DNA from: Escherichia phage CMS-2020a
Strand: one strand, 5' to 3'
DNA length: 64,000 bases
Sequence record: CP053388.1
A program made the translations under genes and the position numbers. Under the pieces are notes generated by a model. The model worked only from the letters and a program-made list of their open reading frames with translations, made no database searches and was not told the DNA's origin. How positions within the stretch are numbered: position 1 is the first letter of the stretch; each line of letters begins with the position of its first letter. Shown here in pieces: positions 15,873 through 35,824 of the stretch.

Positions 15873-17129
15873 CTATCGAGAACCACCAAGAATAACACGG
15901 TTTTTGACTGGATACCTACGATGTACTGGATAGCCCAATGCGTCTGCACTATGCTCAATGCCACCTGTCTTATCCATATCTCGTGTTCCAGGCTTGTAGA
16001 TGACTTTTTCCAGTGAATCAATCAAATGCTTGCACTTCGGATCGATATACAGCCGGATATCTCCAGATGCGGACATCAGCATTCGGTTAACAGCATTAAC
16101 ACGATCCGCAATTGGCGGGTGCTTTTTCGAATAATCGACACGTAAGAATCCCTTCTCTTTGAATATGTCTACGTCAGACTCCCCACGAGCATGTTGGCGA
16201 TAAGCACCTGCCGGATCTGGAAATACCGTTACCTGTGATTTCCAGCGCCAGAAGCGTCTCTCAAGCTCATCACAAACTTCTGCCGTGTTAGAGGAAAAGA
16301 GCACCAATTCATCAATTGCCCATAGCTCACCATTTGGCTGAGGTTGCAAAATTACTGAAGACATCGGGTCAATGTTGAAGTCCTGCCCTACCCATATAGG
16401 CAACCGAGGGTTGAACTGAAGCGGTTTTACATGCACGTTACGATCGAACGGGTAGTAAACGCGCCCGGACATGTTCTCAAAGCTGGCCAGGTACTCCTGA
16501 GCGAACGATTTGGGGTCCATATCGTTCTTAGCAGCTTCAATTTCCGCCGTAGGTACAAACGGAGAATCGGCAGTTACAAACTGCCAGCTCTTCCACTGTC
16601 CCTTTCTTTGCAGCTCTACGTTCTGGCCTATCGTCCACAGTTTGTGAAATTCCGAGAAGCCTTTTGGCGTACCAATGATCAGTGCACCGCCGCGTGTCGA
16701 TGAAAGAGTAGGTCGTAACACCTTGTACCAGGTGTCAGCCTTCATATCCTGAAATTCATCAAGCACTACAAAATGCAACGCTACGCCGCGCAGAGTGTCA
16801 GGCTTATCAGCACCTTTGAGGGCGATCTCCGAACCGTTCTTCAACACGATTGTCATCGTGGTGTCGTTCTTTTTCCTAACCCACTTACGAGGCAGAACTT
16901 CCTGTAGATCGTCCCACAAAATCTGGCGAGCCATCTGGTAAGTAGGAGCGACATACCAGACCCTTTGCTTTTTTTCCTTTGCCGCCGCACGAATAATAGT
17001 GGAGATCGACAACCGGGATTTTCCCCAGCGTCGACCAGCACAAACAACTTTAAATCGATGCGGAGACTGGAAGACTTTCATCTGTCCAGAATGCAGTTGC
17101 ACAAGACTGAGCGAGGACGGGATTGCCAT
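15873..17129 (-). CDS. Terminase large subunit
   Basis: Walker A (VVCAGRRWGKS) and Walker B (HFVVLDEFQD) in the N-terminal ATPase, acidic residues in the C-terminal half; ATGA overlap with the upstream small subunit. Confidence 0.85.
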   Translation of the reverse strand: MAIPSSLSLVQLHSGQMKVFQSPHRFKVVCAGRRWGKSRLSISTIIRAAAKEKKQRVWYVAPTYQMARQILWDDLQEVLPRKWVRKKNDTTMTIVLKNGSEIALKGADKPDTLRGVALHFVVLDEFQDMKADTWYKVLRPTLSSTRGGALIIGTPKGFSEFHKLWTIGQNVELQRKGQWKSWQFVTADSPFVPTAEIEAAKNDMDPKSFAQEYLASFENMSGRVYYPFDRNVHVKPLQFNPRLPIWVGQDFNIDPMSSVILQPQPNGELWAIDELVLFSSNTAEVCDELERRFWRWKSQVTVFPDPAGAYRQHARGESDVDIFKEKGFLRVDYSKKHPPIADRVNAVNRMLMSASGDIRLYIDPKCKHLIDSLEKVIYKPGTRDMDKTGGIEHSADALGYPVHRRYPVKNRVILGGSR

Positions 17130-23003: not shown

Positions 23004-23282
23004 ATGAGTGAAAAGAAAACAACTTACTGTCAGGTAGCATTGTCTGATAAGGCCAATGACAAACTTGGAAAGTTTCAAGTGAAACTAAAAGAAAAAAATA
23101 TCAAAATGTCTAAGGCTGAAGTCATAAATACCATTCTGGAACAATTGACAATGGCCGACTTTGACAAGGTTATATCTTCTGTCGGGGCTTCCGCTAAGAC
23201 TCGTGAGAAAATCATGCGTATCTATGAGAACTCTAATATGACAAAGGAAGATCTCGAAACGCTATTAAGCAGATTAAAATAA
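23004..23282 (+). CDS. Hypothetical protein
   Basis: 92 aa ORF starting 3 nt after the helicase stop. Confidence 0.45.
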   Translation: MSEKKTTYCQVALSDKANDKLGKFQVKLKEKNIKMSKAEVINTILEQLTMADFDKVISSVGASAKTREKIMRIYENSNMTKEDLETLLSRLK

Positions 23283-23350
23283 TCACGCTATCAATTAGGG
23301 AGACAAAGATGAAGTCTCCCATACTGTTCACTTTCTGTTCTAAAACTATC

Positions 23351-23773
23351 ATGAAATACTCGCTTCTCCCTCTACTAACGTTACCAGTGTTGATGCTTAC
23401 CGCGTGCCAATCACGCCCAATATCAATCCATGACGCCAAACCAGCACCGCAGGCCAAAGTGTTCAAGTATCAAAGCGCAGCGCCAGCTACGTTGGTGGTA
23501 ATGAGAGACACAGGTTTTGTAGGAGCTGGATGTGATGCTTCCATTTTCATCAACGGCGAAACTGTCGCAAAACTGGCTACAGGCGAAAAAGCGACTTTCC
23601 ATTTAAATGCCGGAGTATTAATTGTGGGTGCATCTCTTGAAGGTGCAGGTTTATGTGCTCTAAACCCCGCTCGTCAAGAGCGAGAAACGACTCTGAAGAA
23701 TGGAGACACAAAAGCGTTCAGGGTGTTCACCAGCAATTCTGGTGACATCGACATTCTGCCAACAACTCTGTGA
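23351..23773 (+). CDS. Putative lipoprotein (start adjusted to MKYSLLPLLTLPVLMLTAC)
   Basis: Signal peptide with lipobox L-T-A-C; track ORF begins 14 codons earlier. Confidence 0.55.
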   Translation: MKYSLLPLLTLPVLMLTACQSRPISIHDAKPAPQAKVFKYQSAAPATLVVMRDTGFVGAGCDASIFINGETVAKLATGEKATFHLNAGVLIVGASLEGAGLCALNPARQERETTLKNGDTKAFRVFTSNSGDIDILPTTL

Positions 23774-23777
23774 TGAC

Positions 23778-24302
23778 ATGACAACCAAAGATATTACCTA
23801 CGGTATCCAAGCTGAACTCTGGCCGCGAGATTACACTAACGTTGAAAAACTACTGATGTTCTGGCGCAGAGAACAAATTCCTGTAAGGGTCACTCTCGAA
23901 GATGGCCAGGCGTTTTGCATGTACGTTTATGGCCTCATGCCATCTCGTAACAAAGTTGACCTTTGCCCAGCCCCTTTTGACAAAGAAAATCGTATAAGGC
24001 TCCCACTTGAACGCATTAGTACAATTGAATCAGGTGTGGTTGACAGTATCGCTCACGATTTCAAAGGTCGACTAACAGTTCACCCTGATTATGTCGATAA
24101 TCGGCCATCACGCCGCGATTTTTTTGCAATTTGCAACCAAGCCTACAAAGCAAACAAATCTATAAGGGTGTACATGGCGGATGGCCGTGAAATTGAGGGG
24201 GTGTCAGCAGGTGCAGATGCTTGTCAGGTTACACTACGTGTCGAGAACGGTAGAAAAATAGTTGTTTTGTTCGATTGGGTTGAACGAATTTTGCCTTTTT
24301 GA
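23778..24302 (+). CDS. Hypothetical protein (start adjusted to MTTKDITYG)
   Basis: Track ORF 23700-24302 overlaps the lipoprotein gene; in-frame ATG at 23778 follows the lipoprotein stop. Confidence 0.45.
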   Translation: MTTKDITYGIQAELWPRDYTNVEKLLMFWRREQIPVRVTLEDGQAFCMYVYGLMPSRNKVDLCPAPFDKENRIRLPLERISTIESGVVDSIAHDFKGRLTVHPDYVDNRPSRRDFFAICNQAYKANKSIRVYMADGREIEGVSAGADACQVTLRVENGRKIVVLFDWVERILPF

Positions 24303-24305
24303 GTT

Positions 24306-24614
24306 ATGAAATCGATATTGTTACCACCATTATTTTTACTTTGCTCAGTTGCAGCAAATGCAATGGACTATAAGCCTGTCATTCAGTCGCTGATGAATGA
24401 CGTGTGCTCAACGTCTCAGAATGTATCAGTTTGCATGTATCAATTTTCGGCAGCCGTAAAAGCAGGAAAAGCGATAGGCGAGAATGTGGAACTGTGTAAG
24501 AAAGTGGCAAATGAAGAACGGGCAATGTTGGATTGCGAATCTAGCGAGTCATCGGCACAGTTCGTTGATGCGCTATTTGACACCAATCGTAAGGCTGTAG
24601 AGTCTGTTCAATAA
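24306..24614 (+). CDS. Small secreted, cysteine-containing protein
   Basis: N-terminal signal peptide MKSILLPPLFLLCSVAANA with A-x-A cleavage motif; 102 aa. Confidence 0.5.
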   Translation: MKSILLPPLFLLCSVAANAMDYKPVIQSLMNDVCSTSQNVSVCMYQFSAAVKAGKAIGENVELCKKVANEERAMLDCESSESSAQFVDALFDTNRKAVESVQ

Positions 24615-26540: not shown

Positions 26541-26623
26541 CAGCCGTTTCCCGAAAAAATCCTGGCCGTTCCCCCGTCGGCTCATGAATACGTTCCTCGC
26601 CGCTTCTGAAAATTTCCCTGCGG
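26541..26623. repeat. Iteron-like array, type 1, cluster 1
   Basis: agccgtttcccgaaaaa, ggccgttcccccgtcgg, acgttcctcgccgc, cgcttctgaaaatttccctgcgg at about 22 bp spacing. Confidence 0.5.
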
Positions 26624-26669
26624 CAGCTGGTGGCTATAGAGAAAGGGCCGTTTCTGGCCCTCTTCTCAG

Positions 26670-27152
26670 TTACACGCCATCAAGGATGTGGATGCGGTTG
26701 CTTGCGTATACATTCAGCATAAAGTTAGCGCAAAACAGTTTCCATGTATCAACGCCAGCGGTATACGTAATGTTTTTGCATTTAATCGCATTGTTGGCGA
26801 TCCGCATCCCCTGCGATACTGCTTCATCGTCGGAAAATTTGAACGACGATTGAGTTTTAATCCAGACAGAAATCTGCGTAGCGAACTCAATCAGCTTGGA
26901 CTGGCAGAATCGCCCGGAGCGCACCGGAAAGACGAACGTTCCGAATCCAGAATTTACCACATATGCTTTCTCAAATACCCTCGAGTAACGACGATTGCCA
27001 ATGATGTCGCGTGCAATAATGCATTTTTCTTGTGCTGACAGTTCTACCGTCTCATTGTCGCGCCATGCACCAAGTACTCGTTTTTCAATGTCAGAGAACG
27101 TTACAGCGATATTGCCATGTGCGGGTGCGTTTACAGTAGCGATAAAATTCAT
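26670..27152 (-). CDS. Hypothetical protein
   Basis: 160 aa with RBS (aagga) before ATG at 27152 and motif A at 27174-27187; preferred over the overlapping plus-strand ORF. Confidence 0.5.
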   Translation of the reverse strand: MNFIATVNAPAHGNIAVTFSDIEKRVLGAWRDNETVELSAQEKCIIARDIIGNRRYSRVFEKAYVVNSGFGTFVFPVRSGRFCQSKLIEFATQISVWIKTQSSFKFSDDEAVSQGMRIANNAIKCKNITYTAGVDTWKLFCANFMLNVYASNRIHILDGV

Positions 27153-27356
27153 GATTAATTCCTTATCGTAAATAACAAATTGTTTTCTTGTTGGTGTTAA
27201 TTATCGTTGTACGAATAAGGCGTCAAAGTGGAAAGTTGCGGTAGCCGGACGGGAACAGGTGGGTTTGTCGGTTGCCTGGAGGTAAGAGGTTGGTGTTTTT
27301 AGCCTGCGGGAAACAAGATGGTCATTTAAGGCCACCAATGCTGATGGCCTTAATAA

Positions 27357-27500
27357 TTATCGCACGATTACGCTAAGGATCTTTTCCTCAACTGATTTGT
27401 TGTTGCGACTAAACTGCCTTGCGTATCTGATGACAGAAGAGGCGTTTTGCTTTCTGACCATCTCGGCTCTTTCCTTCAGGCGTTTCTTGAAATCGCCCAT
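27357..27500 (-). CDS. Small basic protein (47 aa), hypothetical
   Basis: MGDFKKRLKERAEMVRKQNASSV...; ATG 2 nt after the stop of the upstream gene; below the ORF-track length cutoff. Confidence 0.3.
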   Translation of the reverse strand: MGDFKKRLKERAEMVRKQNASSVIRYARQFSRNNKSVEEKILSVIVR

Positions 27501-28516: not shown

Positions 28517-28828
28517 TCAGGCTATTGCCATCACTGATGCTCTCTGAATCTCTTGCTGGGCCACGCGGTTAACTTCCATCAAAGCCAGTTCGAGCTGATG
28601 TTCCGGCCACATTCTTTGAAATGCCACCCAGCCTTTTCCACGCTGGCGACGAACATTCATTACATAACGAGTAAAGGTGTTTTTATCGAAAGACACCGCT
28701 GTTTCACGGAACAGACGAATAGAGGTTCCATTGGCAACGATGTCCAGCAAAGTTAATTGAGCAACCAGCGCAGGCTTCTCTTTTCTCTTCTGGTCTTTGT
28801 CCAGACCAAGAACCAATGATTTTTTCAT
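28517..28828 (-). CDS. Hypothetical protein (start adjusted to MKKSLVLGL)
   Basis: RBS GGAG 7 nt before ATG at 28828; motif A at 28840-28854 immediately upstream. Confidence 0.5.
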   Translation of the reverse strand: MKKSLVLGLDKDQKRKEKPALVAQLTLLDIVANGTSIRLFRETAVSFDKNTFTRYVMNVRRQRGKGWVAFQRMWPEHQLELALMEVNRVAQQEIQRASVMAIA

Positions 28829-28981
28829 TACAACTCCGTAAACAACTTGTTTTCTCAATGGCGTAAATAATACCAGTAAGAAAACGGCTACAAAGCATAT
28901 TGATCAGGTGCATGAGCGATATGCAGGTTCTTCCCTGCGGCTATAGAGAAATTAAGCCAGCATTGCTGGCTTTGGTTGGGG

Positions 28982-29311
28982 TTACTCGAATACTTCAAGA
29001 AACTCCTGAACGTCCCAATGCTGGACGAGGTGAAGATAGACCTTAGAAATCACGTCATTTTCGCTATCGCATGTGAAGTAGTACTTCTGGCTGCGGTTGT
29101 ATGTGTCCACACAAAATTCGCTCATATCCATAAAGTCAGCATCTTCACCCAGGTCGCTGATCATCAAAGCAGGTGCGTCATCACGAGTCATCAGTTCCAG
29201 CACCCATCTTGAATTGATCAGAGTGGAAGACCAACCTTCTAACTCATAAAACTGATCAAACTCTTTTTGAGTTAATTTCTTGATTTGGTTGATGTCGATA
29301 TTTGTAAACAT
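28982..29311 (-). CDS. Acidic hypothetical protein (start adjusted to second Met)
   Basis: RBS aagga before ATG at 29311; motif A variant at 29324-29338. Confidence 0.5.
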   Translation of the reverse strand: MFTNIDINQIKKLTQKEFDQFYELEGWSSTLINSRWVLELMTRDDAPALMISDLGEDADFMDMSEFCVDTYNRSQKYYFTCDSENDVISKVYLHLVQHWDVQEFLEVFE

Positions 29312-29671
29312 AAAGCAATCCTTAAACATGTTGTTTTCTTGATGGTGTTATTATCGCAATAACACACAGGCGGAAAAGGATTTTATTCCGGTGAATGTGG
29401 TTTTGGCAGTGAGTTTTCAGGTTCAGTACCGAGTACACTTTTTACATTATTCTGATTTAGTGGCCGAAAGTGGCTGGTGGCAGAGTAATCCTCTCCCCAA
29501 AAACCTACTGAAATCGATTGTGCCCCGTTGGCTGTCTGGCACAATTACGCTGTAGCTGGGCATTCAGAGGGAATCCAGCGGTAAGCAAGTCCGCCTACGT
29601 GAGCGCCTCTCTTCTTCCCGCACATTACAGGTGGGTAGCCGCAACTCTCCCTCTCGCTATACCGGTACGCC

Positions 29672-29806
29672 ACCGTTCCTGAACCGGCATCGAGCCTTCT
29701 CCCGAAATCCACACAGGCAACTCGACCGTTTCTCTGAAAACCTCCAGCCGTTCCCCGAAGGCAACCCAGCCGTTTCTGTAGCGGGATGCAGCCTTTTCCC
29801 TGTATG
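29672..29806. repeat. Iteron-like array, type 1, cluster 2
   Basis: Six copies of (A/G)(G/A)CC(G/T)TT(T/C)(C/T)C: accgttcctgaacc, agccttctcccgaaatcc, gaccgtttctctgaaaacc, agccgttccccgaagg, agccgtttctgtagcgg, agccttttccctgtatgg at about 21-22 bp spacing. Confidence 0.5.
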
Positions 29807-30131
29807 GACCGAAGGCTGACCGTAGGGGTGTTACGGGGGGATAAAATCAGGAGTTGAATAAATACGAAAAAGGAGGCGACACCTCTCCTTCCCTCCCCAC
29901 TTATACATACCTGGCTTCTTCGCTATACATGTTGTGTTTTCTTCGTGTTTTATCTGTCTCAACCTCTCTATAGGCGTTAATGCTCACTCCTTCCAGAACG
30001 TTCTATACGGCGACTATTTCTGTTGGTGAATTGGGTGTGTTGTTTTCTCTGTCGGTGTATGTGGTTTCGTTCGTTTTGCGGTGGTTCTTCTAGGGGGTGT
30101 TCTCGTCGTTTTGGTGATTGTTCTTCTCCAT

Positions 30132-30490
30132 GTATGGAGTAATGGCAGGTGGGCGATTCCTTTCGTTGTTGTGTTTGAGTTGTTTGTCTGGAGTGCGTGA
30201 AGGGCTTTTGTAGTTATTCGTGTATTGGGTAATGGCGTTTCCCGTGATTGTTATGTTTCGTGTCTTTTGGGATTGAGAGAATCCTTGTGGTTACAGGCTT
30301 CGTTGGGGTTTCAGTGATTCTGGTGTTTCTTCGCTGTTTGGGTAATGGCCTGTCGTGGGTATCGCGCGTATGAATGTTTTCGGATTGCCTGTGAAAGTTA
30401 GGTTGGTTGTCCGGTAGCCTGGGGAGAAGAGGTGGGTCTTTTCGGTAGCCTGCCATAAAGAGGTTGGTTGTTTTTGGGAATGGCATGTGT
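30132..30490. repeat. Degenerate tandem repeats in a GT-skewed non-coding tract
   Basis: ggagtaatggcaggtggg (30132), ttgggtaatggcgtttcc (30222), ttgggtaatggcctgtcg (30338), ttgggaatggcatgtgtg (30473) about 100-130 bp apart; only short low-complexity ORFs. Confidence 0.5.
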
Positions 30491-30864
30491 GTTATTTAGT
30501 TGTTTTGTTATACCTGAAAATGAGTTGTTTATATGGTTGTGTAACGCAACGGGAGCGATTTTGAGCGTGTGTTTTTGTTGGTAGTGTGTTGGGTCGTCTG
30601 TGGTGAAAATTGGACGCTGTGGCGCTGTCTGCTGCGTAGAGTTACGGGTATAAGAAGTGATGTGTGAAAACGTCAATTTTTTAGACCAAATCGGGTGAAA
30701 GCGTTGACGTTTCGTTGATCTGTTATTTAGTTGTTTTCTTATTTGTATAAACAACCATAACCTATTGATATTTAAAGATATGATTGCAGCTATGGAAGGG
30801 GAGTAGTGGCGATCAACGGATTCTTATAGAAAAGAATCAAATTGTGACCGCCATTATCAATGTT

Positions 30865-31599
30865 TTACATAGTTTTGTTTAGCAGAGAGAGAATTTCATC
30901 ACTAATTTCACTCGCCTGTTTTATAGCCAATGCAGTTACCTCTTCTATGGTTGGTGACTGTTGATGCTCATGTTTGGTTTCAGTTATGACAATGTGTTCT
31001 TCACCTGAATTTGCGCATAGTGCCGCATTGACGATAAGGTTTGAGTAAGAATTTAGCAGAGCACTGTTGATAAACGCTTTCACGGTATTACTGTCTGCAC
31101 CAAATACATCTTTTCTGACCGCTTCAGCCTCACAGCGAACCCCTGCAGCAACATCGTGAAGAACATGTATGGCCTTGGGGCTTGTTTGTTCACAGTACTC
31201 AATCATTATTGTCGAATTGTTCTGTTCAACAAACGATCTGATGCCTGACGATTCACCCATAGCATCGAAGGCAGCGTGACCCGCACTGGTAGAGATATCT
31301 TCATAGAGTTCTTCATCGCTATCTTTTTCTTCAGGTGTCGAGGTGTCTTCATCGTCGTAATAGATATTGCCTTTAATCAGTGTTTTGGACACTTGATATA
31401 AACAATAAGAAACGAGATTTAAGCATTGGATTTTAGCTGTATTGTCCTTTGTCGCCTCGCTCTTCAGTTCTTTCGCTTCTTCAGTAAGGCTGTTGATAAG
31501 ACTTTGTATTTTTTCCAACGCGTTAGGCGCACACTCCGCGTTGTCCATAAAGAATTTATAACCAGTCCCAGGGATTTCTAAACTTTTCAACTTTTTCAT
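30865..31599 (-). CDS. Hypothetical protein
   Basis: 244 aa ORF downstream of the 99-aa gene. Confidence 0.5.
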   Translation of the reverse strand: MKKLKSLEIPGTGYKFFMDNAECAPNALEKIQSLINSLTEEAKELKSEATKDNTAKIQCLNLVSYCLYQVSKTLIKGNIYYDDEDTSTPEEKDSDEELYEDISTSAGHAAFDAMGESSGIRSFVEQNNSTIMIEYCEQTSPKAIHVLHDVAAGVRCEAEAVRKDVFGADSNTVKAFINSALLNSYSNLIVNAALCANSGEEHIVITETKHEHQQSPTIEEVTALAIKQASEISDEILSLLNKTM

Positions 31600-32105: not shown

Positions 32106-34139
32106 TTACTTAACTTGGTGGCCTGGTTTAGCACCAGCATCCGGGCTTAACAGGAAGATATCTTTTCCGCCAGGGCCAGCAGCCATCACCATGCCTTCGG
32201 AGATACCGAAGCGCATTTTACGCGGTGCCAGGTTAGCCACCATAATGGTGTGACGACCAATCAGTGCCTGTGGATCTGGATAAGCGGAACGAATGCCTGA
32301 GAAGACATTACGTTTTTCTCCGCCGAGATCCAGTGTCAGGCGCAGCAGTTTGTCAGAACCTTCGACAAACTCCGCGTTTTCAATCAGCGCCACACGCAGG
32401 TCAACTTTGGCGAAGTCGTCAAAGGTGATGGTTTCCTGAATCGGGGCGTCAGCCAGTGGGCCAGTTACCGGTGCAGCTGTGGCTTTCACTTCTTCTTTGG
32501 ATGCTTCCACCAGTGCTTCCACCTGTTTCATATCGATACGGTTATACAGTGCCTTGAACGGATTCACTTTATGGCCCAGCAGCGGTTGCTGGATACCATC
32601 CCAGGTCAGTTCTGTATTCAGGAATGCTTCTGCACGTTCAGTCAGTTTCGGCAGTACCGGTTTCAGGTACGTCATCAGCACGCGGAACAGGTTAATGCCC
32701 ATAGAGCAAATCGCCTGCAGATCGGCATCGCGTCCTTCCTGCTTCGCCACCACCCACGGAGCCTGTTCATCAACATAGCGGTTAGCCAGGTCAGCCAGTG
32801 CCATGATTTCACGGATAGCTTTGCCAAATTCGCGGCTTTCCCATGCTTCGCCAATCACTTCAGCGGCATCAGTAAAGGTTTTGTACAGTTGCGGGTCAGC
32901 CAGTTCGCTTGCCAGCACGCCGTCAAAACGCTTGTTGATAAAGCCTGCATTACGGGAGGCCAGGTTAACCACTTTGTTCACGATATCGGCATTCACGCGC
33001 TGAACGAAATCTTCCAGGTTGAGATCGATATCATCAATGCGCGAAGAGAGTTTCGCAGTGTAGTAGTAACGCAGGCTGTCGGCGTCAAAATGATTCAGCC
33101 AGGTGCTGGCTTTAATAAAGGTGCCGCGAGACTTGGACATCTTCGCACCGTTCACCGTCACATAGCCATGAACAAACAGGTTGGTCGGCTTGCGGAAGTT
33201 GCTGCCTTCTAGCATGGCAGGCCAGAACAGGCTGTGGAAGTAAACGATATCTTTGCCGATGAAGTGGTACAGCTCGGCGGTGGAGTCTTTCTTCCAGTAT
33301 TCGTCGAAGCTGGTAGTGTCGCCGCGTTTGTCGCACAGATTCTTGAAGGAACCCATGTAGCCAATCGGCGCGTCCAGCCAGACGTAGAAGTATTTGCCCG
33401 GTGCGTTCGGAATTTCAAAACCGAAGTAAGGTGCGTCACGGGAGATATCCCACTGTTGCAGGCCAGATTCAAACCACTCCTGCATTTTGTTTGCCACCTG
33501 CTCCTGCAACGCACCGCTGCGGGTCCATGCCTGCAACATTTCGCTGAAAGAAGGCAGATCAAAGAAGAAGTGTTCGGAATCACGCATTACCGGTGTAGCG
33601 CCAGAAACTACCGATTTCGGCTCGATCAGTTCCGTCGGGCTGTATGTCGCGCCGCAGACTTCACAGTTATCGCCGTATTGATCCGGCGCTTTACATTTCG
33701 GGCATGTGCCTTTTACAAAACGGTCCGGCAGGAACATGCCTTTTTCCGGGTCGTACAGCTGAGAGATGGTGCGGTTTTTAATAAAACCGTTCTCTTTCAG
33801 GCGAGTGTAGATAAGCTCGGACAACTGACGGTTCTCTTCGCTGTGCGTCGAGTGATAGTTGTCATAGCTGATGTTAAAGCCTGCGAAATCAGTCTGATGT
33901 TCCTGACTCATTTCGCCAATCATCTGCTCCGGTGTGATACCAAGCTGCTGTGCTTTCAGCATGATCGGCGTACCGTGGGCATCGTCGGCACAGATGAAAT
34001 TAACCTCGTGGCCGCGCATTCGCTGGTAACGAACCCAGACATCAGCCTGGATGTGCTCCAGCATATGGCCGAGGTGGATTGAGCCGTTAGCGTACGGCAG
34101 CGCGCACGTCACCAGAATTTTCTTCGCGACTTGGGTCAT
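32106..34139 (-). CDS. metG: Methionyl-tRNA synthetase
   Basis: 677 aa from [29 protein letters not shown] (HIGH motif) through KMSKS to the C-terminal dimerisation/tRNA-binding domain; matches E. coli MetG nearly residue for residue from memory. The track ORF (to 34268) adds a spurious 43-aa extension. Confidence 0.95.
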
Positions 34140-34296
34140 AGTAGGCATTACTTCTTTGTAGTGAAAAGGGGCTTGATAGTAACAAAATGGCCTTATGTCT
34201 GCCATGTGATAACAGCATTTCTCATAAATGATTAAATGTCGTAGCTGGAGTACACTACAAGGCGACAATTGCGCAAATTAAAATAAAGGAGACGGG

Positions 34297-35397
34297 ATGA
34301 GCGAGTCCAAATCGCCGGATGCCCTGAGAGCAATGGTAGCCGGTACGCTGGCTAATTTTCAGCACCCAACCCTGAAACACAACCTGACTACGCTTAAAGC
34401 GTTACACCATGTTGCGTTGATGGATGACACACTGCATGTCGAACTAATCATGCCTTTCGTGTGGAATAAGCCTTTTGAAGACCTGAAAGAGCAATGTAGT
34501 GGTGATCTGCTCCGTATCACTGGCGCAAAGGCTATTGACTGGAAGCTGTCGTACAACATTGCCACGCTTAAGCGTGTCAAAAACCAACCAGGCATTAATG
34601 GCGTTAAGAACATTATCGCCGTCAGCTCAGGCAAGGGCGGCGTGGGTAAATCCTCCACGGCGGTAAACCTGGCACTGGCGTTGGCTGCTGAAGGTGCGAA
34701 AGTTGGTATTTTGGATGCCGATATCTATGGTCCATCAATTCCAACCATGCTGGGCGCGGAAAACCAACGTCCAACCTCACCTGACGGTACTCACATGGCA
34801 CCTATCATGTCTCATGGCCTGGCAACCAACTCTATTGGTTATCTGGTCACCGACGACAATGCAATGGTGTGGCGTGGACCGATGGCCAGCAAGGCGCTGA
34901 TGCAGATGTTGCAGGAAACATTGTGGCCTGATCTGGACTATCTTGTTCTCGATATGCCGCCGGGCACTGGTGATATTCAGTTGACGCTGGCGCAGAACAT
35001 TCCTGTAACTGGTGCTGTTGTGGTAACTACGCCGCAAGACATCGCGCTGATCGATGCGAAGAAAGGCATTGTGATGTTCGAAAAAGTCGAAGTGCCGGTA
35101 CTGGGTATCGTTGAAAACATGAGTGTGCATATTTGCAGTAACTGCGGTCATCACGAGCCAATTTTTGGCACCGGTGGCGCACAGAAACTGGCCGAGAAAT
35201 ACAACACGCAGTTGTTAGGCCAAATGCCACTTCATATCTCTCTTCGTGAAGATCTGGATAACGGAACACCAACCGTTATTAGTCGTCCAGATAGCGAATT
35301 TACAGCTATTTATCGTGACCTCGCAGATCGCGTTGCCGCCCAAATGTATTGGCAAGGTGAAGTAATACCTGGCGAAATCGCATTCCGCGCAGTGTGA
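34297..35397 (+). CDS. apbC: Fe-S cluster carrier ATPase ApbC/Mrp
   Basis: Deviant Walker A SGKGGVGKSSTAVNLA, CxxC motif (ICSNCGHH); divergent from metG exactly as in the E. coli mrp-metG locus. Confidence 0.9.
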   Translation: MSESKSPDALRAMVAGTLANFQHPTLKHNLTTLKALHHVALMDDTLHVELIMPFVWNKPFEDLKEQCSGDLLRITGAKAIDWKLSYNIATLKRVKNQPGINGVKNIIAVSSGKGGVGKSSTAVNLALALAAEGAKVGILDADIYGPSIPTMLGAENQRPTSPDGTHMAPIMSHGLATNSIGYLVTDDNAMVWRGPMASKALMQMLQETLWPDLDYLVLDMPPGTGDIQLTLAQNIPVTGAVVVTTPQDIALIDAKKGIVMFEKVEVPVLGIVENMSVHICSNCGHHEPIFGTGGAQKLAEKYNTQLLGQMPLHISLREDLDNGTPTVISRPDSEFTAIYRDLADRVAAQMYWQGEVIPGEIAFRAV

Positions 35398-35423
35398 TAA
35401 AAAGGCGGTGCATTGCACCGCCT
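35395..35423 (-). terminator. Terminator hairpin between apbC and the UmuD'-like gene
   Basis: Palindrome aggcggtgcattgcaccgcct; minus-strand reading is followed by tttttatca. Confidence 0.55.
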
Positions 35424-35434
35424 AATCAGTTCTC

Positions 35435-35824
35435 CTACATCACGGGACAATCATCAAACTCGCCACTTCTTGCGTCGTTGATAATGTGAGTGATCACACC
35501 AAACACGGCATTGCTGCCCGTGCATCCATCGTCATCCTTTGGCAATGCTTCCTTCTTACCGGTTCTTAAATCCTCCAGATGCTGACGTGGGTACTTCCGG
35601 TATCTTTTTACGCGATATTCCCCATCCAGAGCGCATACAAGCAGAGAACCATCAACCGGGGTAAGTGAGGAATCGACCACCAGCAATGCACCCTGTAATA
35701 TTCCCTCACGATGATGACTATCAGCTGCCCTCATGAAGTAGGTCGCTGAAGGATGTCTAATTATCTGCTGATCAAGAGAAATACGGCTCTCAACATAATC
35801 CGCCGCAGGAGAAGGGAAGCCCAT
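35435..35824 (-). CDS. umuD: UmuD'-like protein (pre-truncated UmuD analog, P1 HumD-like)
   Basis: Starts MGFPSPAADYVE, i.e. at the Gly after the UmuD Cys-Gly cleavage site; Ser and Lys of the catalytic dyad conserved in alignment; LexA box immediately upstream. Confidence 0.8.
   Translation of the reverse strand: MGFPSPAADYVESRISLDQQIIRHPSATYFMRAADSHHREGILQGALLVVDSSLTPVDGSLLVCALDGEYRVKRYRKYPRQHLEDLRTGKKEALPKDDDGCTGSNAVFGVITHIINDARSGEFDDCPVM

Follow-up and report, generated by a model that had tools for sequence, protein, structure and literature searches.

The window analysed here is the whole 64,000-nucleotide (nt) stretch of Escherichia phage CMS-2020a (CP053388.1), an element that is a ~108-kb phage-plasmid of the SSU5/pHCM2 supergroup. 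Its subject is the tract at 29330-30864, a gap poor in open reading frames (ORFs) between the minus-strand ORFs 28982-29329 and 30865-31599. The neighbours of the tract are all minus-strand genes, and the flanking ones encode small, function-unassigned proteins that differ among clades; in the closest plasmid, a regulator block and a run of small minus-strand genes separate the tail, head and terminase genes from the tract, and cargo follows on its far side. On the comparative evidence given below, the tract is a conserved non-coding element with a cis or RNA function, and its architecture, opposed box arrays combined with a very long G-depleted leader, is unusual. It is also an undescribed control element: no description of it was found in the literature on SSU5/pHCM2 origins, non-coding RNAs and PhageTerm data, and public annotation is blank. 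As the largest non-coding element of the genome, conserved, placed at the border of cargo and backbone, and near a putative master regulator, it is a prime candidate for a cis-acting insulator or trigger of the early programme. From left to right, its features are as follows.

29330-30864: the whole conserved non-coding tract, as delimited by the ORF map, synteny, the conservation profile and the lack of 3-nt periodicity.
29330-29362, minus strand: predicted promoter/5' untranslated region of the first early gene, made up of TGCGATAAT, of the extended -10 type, and then AAGAAAACAAC, which adjoins the ATG at 29329.
29363-29560: lineage-variable left segment with a Chi site (29473-29480, plus strand).
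29672-29812, plus strand: left array of six ~22-nt units with the core GCCkTTyCCC, starting at 29672, 29694, 29725, 29747, 29769 and 29791.
29813-29899: conserved block with GGGGGATAAAATCAGGAGTTGAATAAATACG, a polypyrimidine run and CCCACTTATAC (conservation 0.64-0.81).
29900-29989: variable spacer (conservation 0.23-0.44), where the GC skew changes sign.
29986-30739, minus strand: G-poor, C/A-rich body on the gene-sense strand (A 40%, C 31.9%, G 12.7%, T 15%).
30124-30151, minus strand: right-array unit 1, TTCTCCATGTATGGAGTAATGGC, with box GCCATTACTC at 30137-30146.
30214-30241, minus strand: right-array unit 2, with box GCCATTACCC at 30227-30236.
30327-30354, minus strand: right-array unit 3, with box GCCATTACCC at 30340-30349.
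30412-30473, plus strand: two tandem 31-nt units, CGGTAGCCTGGGGnnAnGAGGTGGGTCTTTT (conservation 0.81-0.83).
30475-30484, minus strand: fourth, degenerate box, GCCATTCCC.
30490-30511, minus strand: 22-nt repeat, copy 1, TGTTATTTAGTTGTTTTGTTAT, whose minus strand AACAAAACAAC is a half-site of the regulon motif.
30513-30531: position of an operator-type palindrome, GAAAACAAsTTGTTTAG, intact in other clades and degenerate here (GAAAATGAGTTGTTTAT).
30648-30676, minus strand: promoter-like pair TTGACG (30676-30671), 17 nt, TATACC (30653-30648), reading into the C/A-rich body.
30666-30713: inverted pair GAAAACGTCAA / TTGACGTTTC with a 27-nt spacer.
30721-30742, minus strand: 22-nt repeat, copy 2, TGTTATTTAGTTGTTTTCTTAT, whose minus strand holds AAGAAAACAAC, the exact regulon motif.
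30807-30853: boundary inverted repeat, TGGCGATCA (30807-15) / TGACCGCCA (30845-53).

The same place and the same strand-biased repeat layout recur in hundreds of SSU5/pHCM2-type phage-plasmids from gut bacteria, and it is for this reason that we regard the tract as a real control element. Of 5426 complete E. coli genomes, 239 have a match, in each case on a plasmid and not on the chromosome, the best match being 98.1% identical with no annotation beneath it; a 40-nt repeat unit has zero chromosomal copies in the 5426 genomes. In PLSDB there are 839 matching plasmids, 811 of them non-mobilizable, from Klebsiella, Escherichia, Enterobacter, Salmonella (pHCM2), Citrobacter, Cronobacter and Shigella, and the matching phage records are Cyrano (96%), PhiR41_1, CMS-2020a, SSU5 (68%) and Klebsiella phages, with the tract internal to the record in 11/11. 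A single 20-nt motif from the 31-nt units retrieved 48 IMG/VR loci, all 48 of them true loci with the tract, making it a cleaner marker of the supergroup than many genes. A search with the flanking protein, using one genome per species, added four loci (Kluyvera, Buttiauxella and a metagenome-assembled genome among them), each with the same layout. All relatives have a syntenic, unannotated gap of 1.4-1.9 kb at this position, and this includes far relatives in which the flanking protein is only 34-56% identical.

The syntenic gap was aligned first for ten lineages and later for a non-redundant set of 22. Among the three main clades, identity over the tract is 60-73% and rises to 80-96% in individual blocks. 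In homologous flanking genes of the same elements, identity is 0.66-0.82 at the first, 0.79-0.87 at the second and 0.35-0.49 at the third codon position, and the tract is conserved on a par with the surrounding coding genes and far above the synonymous sites of its neighbours. Variability is nevertheless equal in the three codon phases (0.122, 0.115 and 0.113), the indels are not multiples of three, and the statement in the first-pass annotation that no plausible ORF spans the region stands: the longest internal ORFs, of 118 and 90 amino acids, have no family match, a search of the tract's ORFs against Pfam and PHROG gave none, and no ORF is conserved among relatives.

These data bear directly on the reading of the tract as a decayed gene, a pseudogene remnant or neutral junk. 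It draws some support from the hypothetical proteins annotated within the tract in some phage records, and from a real gene that one clade has in its left 200 nt: 29363-29560 gives way, in the SSU5/pHCM2/Citrobacter/E. cloacae clade, to the 80-amino-acid plus-strand gene SSU5_110 (L002 5604-5846), which is genuine and intact wherever present. No remnant of SSU5_110 was detected in the present tract by tblastn (E 0.52), and the two other annotated genes, SSU5_109 and SSU5_108 (L002 5954-6151 and 6527-6766), have stops or frameshifts in sister plasmids and are therefore probably spurious ORF calls. Together with the equal codon-phase variability, the non-triplet indels, the family-less ORFs, an identity far above that of synonymous sites, and an architecture that persists where the flanking protein is only 34% identical, this makes the decayed-gene reading barely credible and in effect refutes it. 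The annotation had itself named an intact gene in relatives as the sign of a pseudogene; none of the relatives compared has an intact gene spanning the tract, and the annotation's inference withstands this test. Its central argument, that so long a non-coding stretch is kept for a cis or RNA function, is upheld by synteny, conservation and the absence of triplet periodicity, while the functions it listed are each no more than candidates.

The most durable feature of the tract is its strand-specific composition. The annotation described the whole plus strand as strongly G+T-rich, which is correct for 29986-30739 (GC skew +0.19 to +0.49, AT skew -0.22 to -0.61) and incorrect for the left part, where 29450-29900 has 55-56% GC and a C-rich plus strand. 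Read on the minus strand, 29986-30739 is a 754-nt uninterrupted run of C>G, the longest on either strand of the window, the next longest being 241 nt. Skew polarity is kept in L064, L065 and L066, the relatives with flanking proteins 34-56% identical, and in L065 both polarity and length are kept though the interior can no longer be aligned. Conserved positions, moreover, have 70.7% G+T, against 61.6% at variable positions. Because the depletion in G outlasts alignability and is stronger at conserved positions, the function would seem to be exerted by one strand, most simply as a leftward transcript. The substitution spectrum was uninformative on whether composition is selected, since 28% of the changes are G<->T, as composition itself predicts; helical phasing of TT/GG in the G+T-rich body was not significant, and sense-strand k-mers enriched beyond composition were the known repeats only.

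As RNA, the minus strand of the body is nearly structure-free, with minimum free energies (MFE) of -11 to -21 kcal/mol per 200 nt and z near 0, and it is free of start codons. It thus has the composition by which Rho utilization (rut) regions are recognised, namely C>G, unstructured and untranslated over at least ~80 nt. At its upstream end, the right-flank gene, the last of the cargo, points into the tract in 12 of the 13 lineages, and neither the alignment nor terminator prediction gave a conserved intrinsic terminator at the cargo boundary. A terminator-like hairpin, on the minus strand at 29885-29873, belongs to the present lineage and is not kept in the alignment of other clades. Within the tract, both hexamers of the pair TTGACG-17-TATACC are invariant in 10/10 aligned lineages, and we infer a promoter here; a consensus promoter scanner skips it, as the -10 hexamer lacks its final T. 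The element at 29330-29362, 96% identical over 10 lineages, would be the promoter of the first early gene, to judge from its motifs and its position against the ATG.

We therefore have an entering cargo gene, no conserved intrinsic terminator, leftward promoter-like units and an RNA of the Rho type, and on this combination we favour, tentatively, a reading of the tract as a transcription barrier and leader of the leftward early operon, probably Rho-dependent. The tract would sit at the junction of lineage-specific cargo and the leftward early operon and act mainly via minus-strand transcription. Transcripts would enter from the last cargo gene, or start at the promoter- and operator-type elements of the tract itself (~30745; 30676-30648). 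The resulting RNA of ~750 nt, G-poor, C/A-rich, unstructured and untranslatable, may serve as an outsized loading zone for Rho, so that transcription would halt ahead of the early genes unless these are expressed from their own repressor-controlled promoter (29330-29362) or a phage factor overrides the block. The opposed GCCnTTnCCC arrays, the 31-nt units and the boundary inverted repeat would be putative protein-binding sites that tune or anchor the barrier. Rho action on the tract is suggested by the composition of the RNA, and binding of proteins to the boxes by their conservation and arrangement.

Several observations weigh against a barrier and leader of this kind. Leftward transcription of the tract is deduced from the orientation of the flanking genes and from promoter-like motifs, and this applies to its very existence as well as to its direction. 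In the Klebsiella clade, moreover, the right-flank gene (DUF262) points away from the tract. A rut zone needs composition and not sequence, yet conservation of 30-60-nt blocks and of the GCCATTACCC box extends to a far relative, which implies sequence-specific recognition beyond Rho alone. Known Rho-dependent terminators extend over ~100-200 nt, and 750 nt is several times that. The six phased 22-nt units resemble DNA iterons. Finally, an excess of G over C and of T over A on the plus strand would also be expected if that strand were the non-template strand or single-stranded, and such a skew would point to rightward transcription or to strand-displacement replication.

The box arrays are the second conserved component of the tract. 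The annotation had reported four GGGTAATGGC-type repeats, and these lie at 30137-46, 30227-36, 30340-49 and 30475-84, spaced by 90, 113 and 135 nt; in full they are three 26-28-nt units ending in GTAATGGC plus the fourth, degenerate box, against 5-6 in relatives, unit 1 having a block identity of 0.89 among lineages. They had been called tandem repeats, whereas most are dispersed direct repeats; the description fits two weak tandems that had been overlooked, the six 22-nt and the two 31-nt units. Tandem Repeats Finder detected no real array in the tract, only two trivial rows with scores of 32 and 37, because the 22-nt and 31-nt units are too degenerate for it. The left-array units are spaced by 22, 31, 22, 22 and 22 nt, with a GG dinucleotide periodicity of 10.75 nt, and their number and phase are the same in the E. 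coli, SSU5 and Enterobacter clades and in Kluyvera. The boxes of the left and right arrays are one degenerate 10-mer, GCCnTTnCCC, in opposite orientations. While raw motif counts within the single sequence are only modest, each lineage has 4-7 plus-strand copies, all to the left of 3-6 minus-strand copies, where 0.2-0.3 per strand are expected with local composition preserved; the polarity is the same in 7 of 8 lineages, the distant L064 included, and L065 has no right array.

Small copies of tract elements are found 2-3 kb to the left, at 26541-26650 and 27179-27352. In the former, a Chi site and a terminator-like hairpin accompany a pair of GCCGTTyCCC boxes with a 22-nt spacing. The latter, upstream of the minus-strand gene that starts at 27152, has three 31-nt CGGTAGCC-type units and a TTGTTTTCTTGTTGGTGTTAATTATCG element; here 27179-27206 is a near-copy of 29330-29362, and the units at 27239-27330 are similar to the 31-nt units of the tract. 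The 31-nt unit thus recurs ahead of a second early promoter, within a further intergenic stretch with C>G (27160-27360).

Opposed, phased arrays are what one would expect of a lytic (phage-mode) origin or replication-control site, which the annotation had listed as a lytic origin. In such a scheme an initiator of the phage-plasmid would act on the opposed GCCnTTnCCC arrays, the DNA would open near 29900-29990, and repressor-controlled promoters in the right-hand module would activate the origin by transcription. The left array has six direct repeats in helical phase where iterons are defined by at least three, and their conserved number and phase across clades, the strict polarity and excess of the boxes, the switch in GC skew at the spacer and the promoter- and operator-type motifs adjacent to the arrays all agree with it. 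The element furthermore encodes its own replisome (a DnaB-like helicase, a primase, Pol III alpha and a gp32-type single-stranded DNA-binding protein), and the accessible literature assigns no lytic origin. Against this, the tract has no DnaA box, an IHF consensus in two lineages only, few GATC sites, and no conserved AT-rich unwinding element: just one 13-mer-like sequence is present, a weak one at 30717, and the spacer at 29900-29990, which carries a ~30-nt insertion in the E. coli clade only, is not markedly AT-rich. No initiator gene is adjacent, the replication genes being ~45 kb off, and the cumulative skew across the window has no extremum at the tract. L065 keeps the length and the skew without the right array, and the skew belongs to the whole 750 nt and not to the boxes. 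An origin is thus unlikely, though it is the main rival of the barrier and leader.

The plasmid replicon is elsewhere. A RepB-family gene lies 35 kb from the tract and is flanked by different iterons, TATGCTGyCAGCGG. More than 15 of these flank it on both sides (NZ_CP082122; L013 1096-1680, L015 8045-8374), adjoining an AGATCC-rich stretch just outside the window, and to judge from these repeats this region is likely the plasmid origin. A role of the tract as a handcuffing site for the plasmid initiator was ruled out, the RepB iterons being different in sequence.

The right-hand module (30490-30760) combines two 22-nt repeats, the palindrome, the inverted TTGACG pair and TTGACG-17-TATACC. The two ttatttagttgttttSttat copies noticed in the annotation are confirmed, as the 22-nt repeat TGTTATTTAGTTGTTTTsTTAT at 30490-30511 and 30721-30742 (95% identity). 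On the minus strand they belong to a motif, AAGAAAACAAC, with 12 copies in the window against 2 expected, always sense-oriented, at sites that include 27179, 29330, 30730, 31964, 44829, 45558 and 55779 (minus strand) and 23013 (plus strand). In the form nATAAGAAAACAAnTTGTTT it precedes at least nine dispersed operons, at a distance of 20-45 nt from the start codon; in the full plasmid these include a ParA/MipZ-like gene, nrdB and an HNH endonuclease gene; the palindrome GAAAACAAsTTGTTTAG is likewise found upstream of at least nine operons. Three to four copies of the regulon motif, all sense-oriented, lie inside the tract, and the distant L064 and L065 have four each. The AAGAAAACAAnTTGTTT motif may be a DNA or RNA operator.

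A candidate for the factor that reads it lies ~5 kb to the left, at 23700-24299 (plus strand), and matches the Pfam family Flag1_repress (FljA) with an E-value of 2.5e-84, with a weak Hfq-like match at its C-terminus. It is conserved, as SSU5_121 in SSU5 and with 78% identity in NZ_CP082122. FljA proteins block translation of fliC mRNA (PMC2652032), and for this reason the phage-plasmid "repressor" may act on RNA. A single-sequence AlphaFold model of the regulator was unusable, with a predicted local distance difference test (pLDDT) score of 36, and no relative was found in the PDB. The regulator module (23254-24612) is a different allele from that of NZ_CP082122, which is otherwise 97-98% identical, and this mosaic replacement suggests heteroimmune variants.

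These motifs make it necessary to consider a long, unstructured regulatory RNA, which could take two forms: a C/A-rich transcript of the minus strand whose AAGAAAACAAC and GCCAUUACCC motifs would titrate an RNA-binding regulator such as the FljA-family protein, or a G/U-rich antisense RNA from the plus strand by which leftward early transcription would be silenced. Strand-specific composition conserved beyond sequence similarity, the sense-oriented motif copies in the tract, the nearby regulator with its Hfq-like C-terminus and mRNA-acting family, and the invariant promoter-like pair are all in keeping with this, as is a plus-sense consensus fold over 860 nt that is modestly better than block shuffles (z = -3.6, against -1.75 for the minus sense). 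Other results count against it. Rfam gave no match at gathering thresholds over the whole window, at E <= 1 over 28800-31400, or at E <= 0.1 in L002, L005, L007, L011, L064, L065 and L066. Single-sequence folding inside the tract ranges from z = -1.8 to +1.5, and the consensus MFE of -1 to -14 kcal/mol per 160 nt is small apart from local palindromes. Phylogeny-robust covariation is not significant (12 pairs changed on both sides against 10.0, reached in 35 of 500 shuffles), with chance pairing in such G/U-rich sequence in 43-51% of cells. A predicted long-range pairing of 29865-29894 with 30421-30444 was backed by one-sided changes only and was rejected, and the inverted pair at 30666-30713 is not a covarying RNA stem, since its right arm varies as TTGACG/TTGACA/TTGACT without compensation. 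The long non-coding RNA suggested by the annotation is thus unsupported as a structured RNA. Since, in addition, no conserved terminator delimits a discrete RNA, k-mers beyond the known repeats are not enriched and the model of the regulator is unusable, even an unstructured regulatory RNA appears rather unlikely to us. The minus-strand box GCCAUUACCC(ACAC) also resembles the antisense of 16S rRNA, GGGGUAACGGC (GUGGGGUAACGGC), which we take to be, presumably, a coincidence.

One further proposal unites the two RNA-based readings: the tract RNA would be a new kind of long, G-depleted, structure-free regulator, at once a Rho trap and a protein sponge built from a repressor-type promoter, whose AAGAAAACAAC/GCCAUUACCC boxes would capture the FljA-family regulator or another factor. 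We regard this as speculative and decidedly unlikely; if true, it would gate early-gene expression, and thus the decision between plasmid and lytic life, across the SSU5 supergroup.

At the right edge, the boundary inverted repeat gives the strongest local consensus fold (minus strand, z = -8), and immediately to its right the lineages diverge into differing cargo. Here host-derived cargo begins right after the tract, at 32106-35500 of the window, with a metG near-identical to the E. coli chromosomal gene and the adjacent apbC (mrp), followed by a HumD-type protein, the theta subunit of DNA polymerase III and a type I restriction-modification system; the closest plasmid carries the same set of cargo beyond its tract, namely metG, apbC, the HumD-type protein, theta and the type I system. 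In large Klebsiella IncFIB/IncHI1B plasmids (L003 5727-8738, L004 5717-8635), the right half of a Klebsiella-type tract is found together with the DUF262 defence gene. The segment is 96.5% identical to the Klebsiella phage-plasmid L011 and represents a single recent recombinant of ~3 kb with its breakpoint inside the tract; just to the left of that breakpoint L003 has an IS3-family transposase gene. This is evidence of recent exchange between phage-plasmids and other plasmids. Matches beside psiA in these plasmids prompted us to consider a single-strand promoter of the Frpo/ssi type, which we rejected because the matches stem from this one recombinant and no long hairpin exists in single-stranded DNA folds of 30400-30760 (z = -1.4 and -1.6).

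The boundary raises the question of other DNA sites, that is, a packaging (pac) site, a partition centromere, a junction for recombination or cargo insertion, or a polar fork trap formed by the opposed arrays. Opposed asymmetric boxes do resemble fork traps and nucleoprotein assembly sites, the conserved inverted repeat marks the exact start of lineage-differing cargo, and the Klebsiella breakpoint falls inside the tract. However, the terminase is of the T4/P74-26 type, suggesting headful packaging with pac near the terminase genes, and since TerL (15873-17129) is 13 kb away, the packaging site put forward in the annotation is unlikely. The ParA/MipZ-type partition gene and the tyrosine recombinase are 40-55 kb away, and the Klebsiella recombinant is one recent event, truncated by IS3. 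None of these roles accounts for 750 nt of strand-biased composition, and we hold a site of this class to be highly unlikely. Nor is the Chi octamer a feature of the tract as such: the copy at 29473-29480 is present as annotated, yet there is nothing special about it, because Chi (GCTGGTGG) is enriched window-wide, with 14 copies on both strands against 1.3 expected from shuffles, a density similar to that of the E. coli chromosome.

Clinical E. coli, Shigella, Salmonella Typhi, Klebsiella and Enterobacter commonly harbour phage-plasmids of the SSU5/pHCM2/pSLy3 type, whose cargo includes resistance and defence functions (PMC9600943; bioRxiv 10.1101/2025.09.12.675607). In the searchable literature, their switch between plasmid and lytic states and the start of their lytic replication have not been worked out, which leaves better-studied systems as the basis of comparison. 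The large RNAs of Rfam (GOLLD, ROOL, OLE) share with the tract their size class and their location on phage-like elements, while the tract lacks an Rfam match, excess folding stability and robust covariation.

Early-promoter leaders of large virulent phages, such as the A1-A3 region of T7 and the repeat-rich non-coding region of the T5 terminal repeat, are similar as long non-coding stretches that head a block of small, function-unassigned early genes and hold several promoter-like units pointing one way; in the tract, by contrast, only 29330-29362 resembles a strong sigma-70 promoter. A genome-end role is unlikely for a circular plasmid prophage whose terminase is of the headful type.

Iteron origins (lambda ori, R6K gamma, P1 oriR/oriL) and the opposed DnaA-box arrays of oriC are matched by the six repeats phased at 22 bp, the opposed second array and nearby promoters that might activate an origin by transcription. 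In contrast to them, the tract has no AT-rich unwinding element, host-factor boxes or adjacent initiator gene, its right array is spread at 90-140 nt and is not helically phased, and the RepB iterons of the plasmid are of a different sequence and located elsewhere. The P1 C1 repressor regulon, whose operators are dispersed over a phage-plasmid genome, is comparable in that a short motif, here nATAAGAAAACAAnTTGTTT, recurs at no fewer than nine dispersed operon starts and several times in the tract, but nATAAGAAAACAAnTTGTTT is unrelated in sequence and always sense-oriented, and the neighbouring regulator is of the FljA family, which acts on mRNA (PMC2652032).

The closest likeness to our favoured reading of a barrier and leader is that to Rho-dependent terminators and their rut regions (lambda tR1, the P4 immunity terminator). 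As in these, the RNA of the tract is untranslated, C-rich, G-poor (C/G = 2.5) and unstructured, and the tract is bounded by a stop codon upstream and a repressor-controlled operon downstream. Unlike them, it is ~750 nt long instead of roughly 100-200 nt, and it carries highly conserved blocks and box arrays, for which a rut region has no need.

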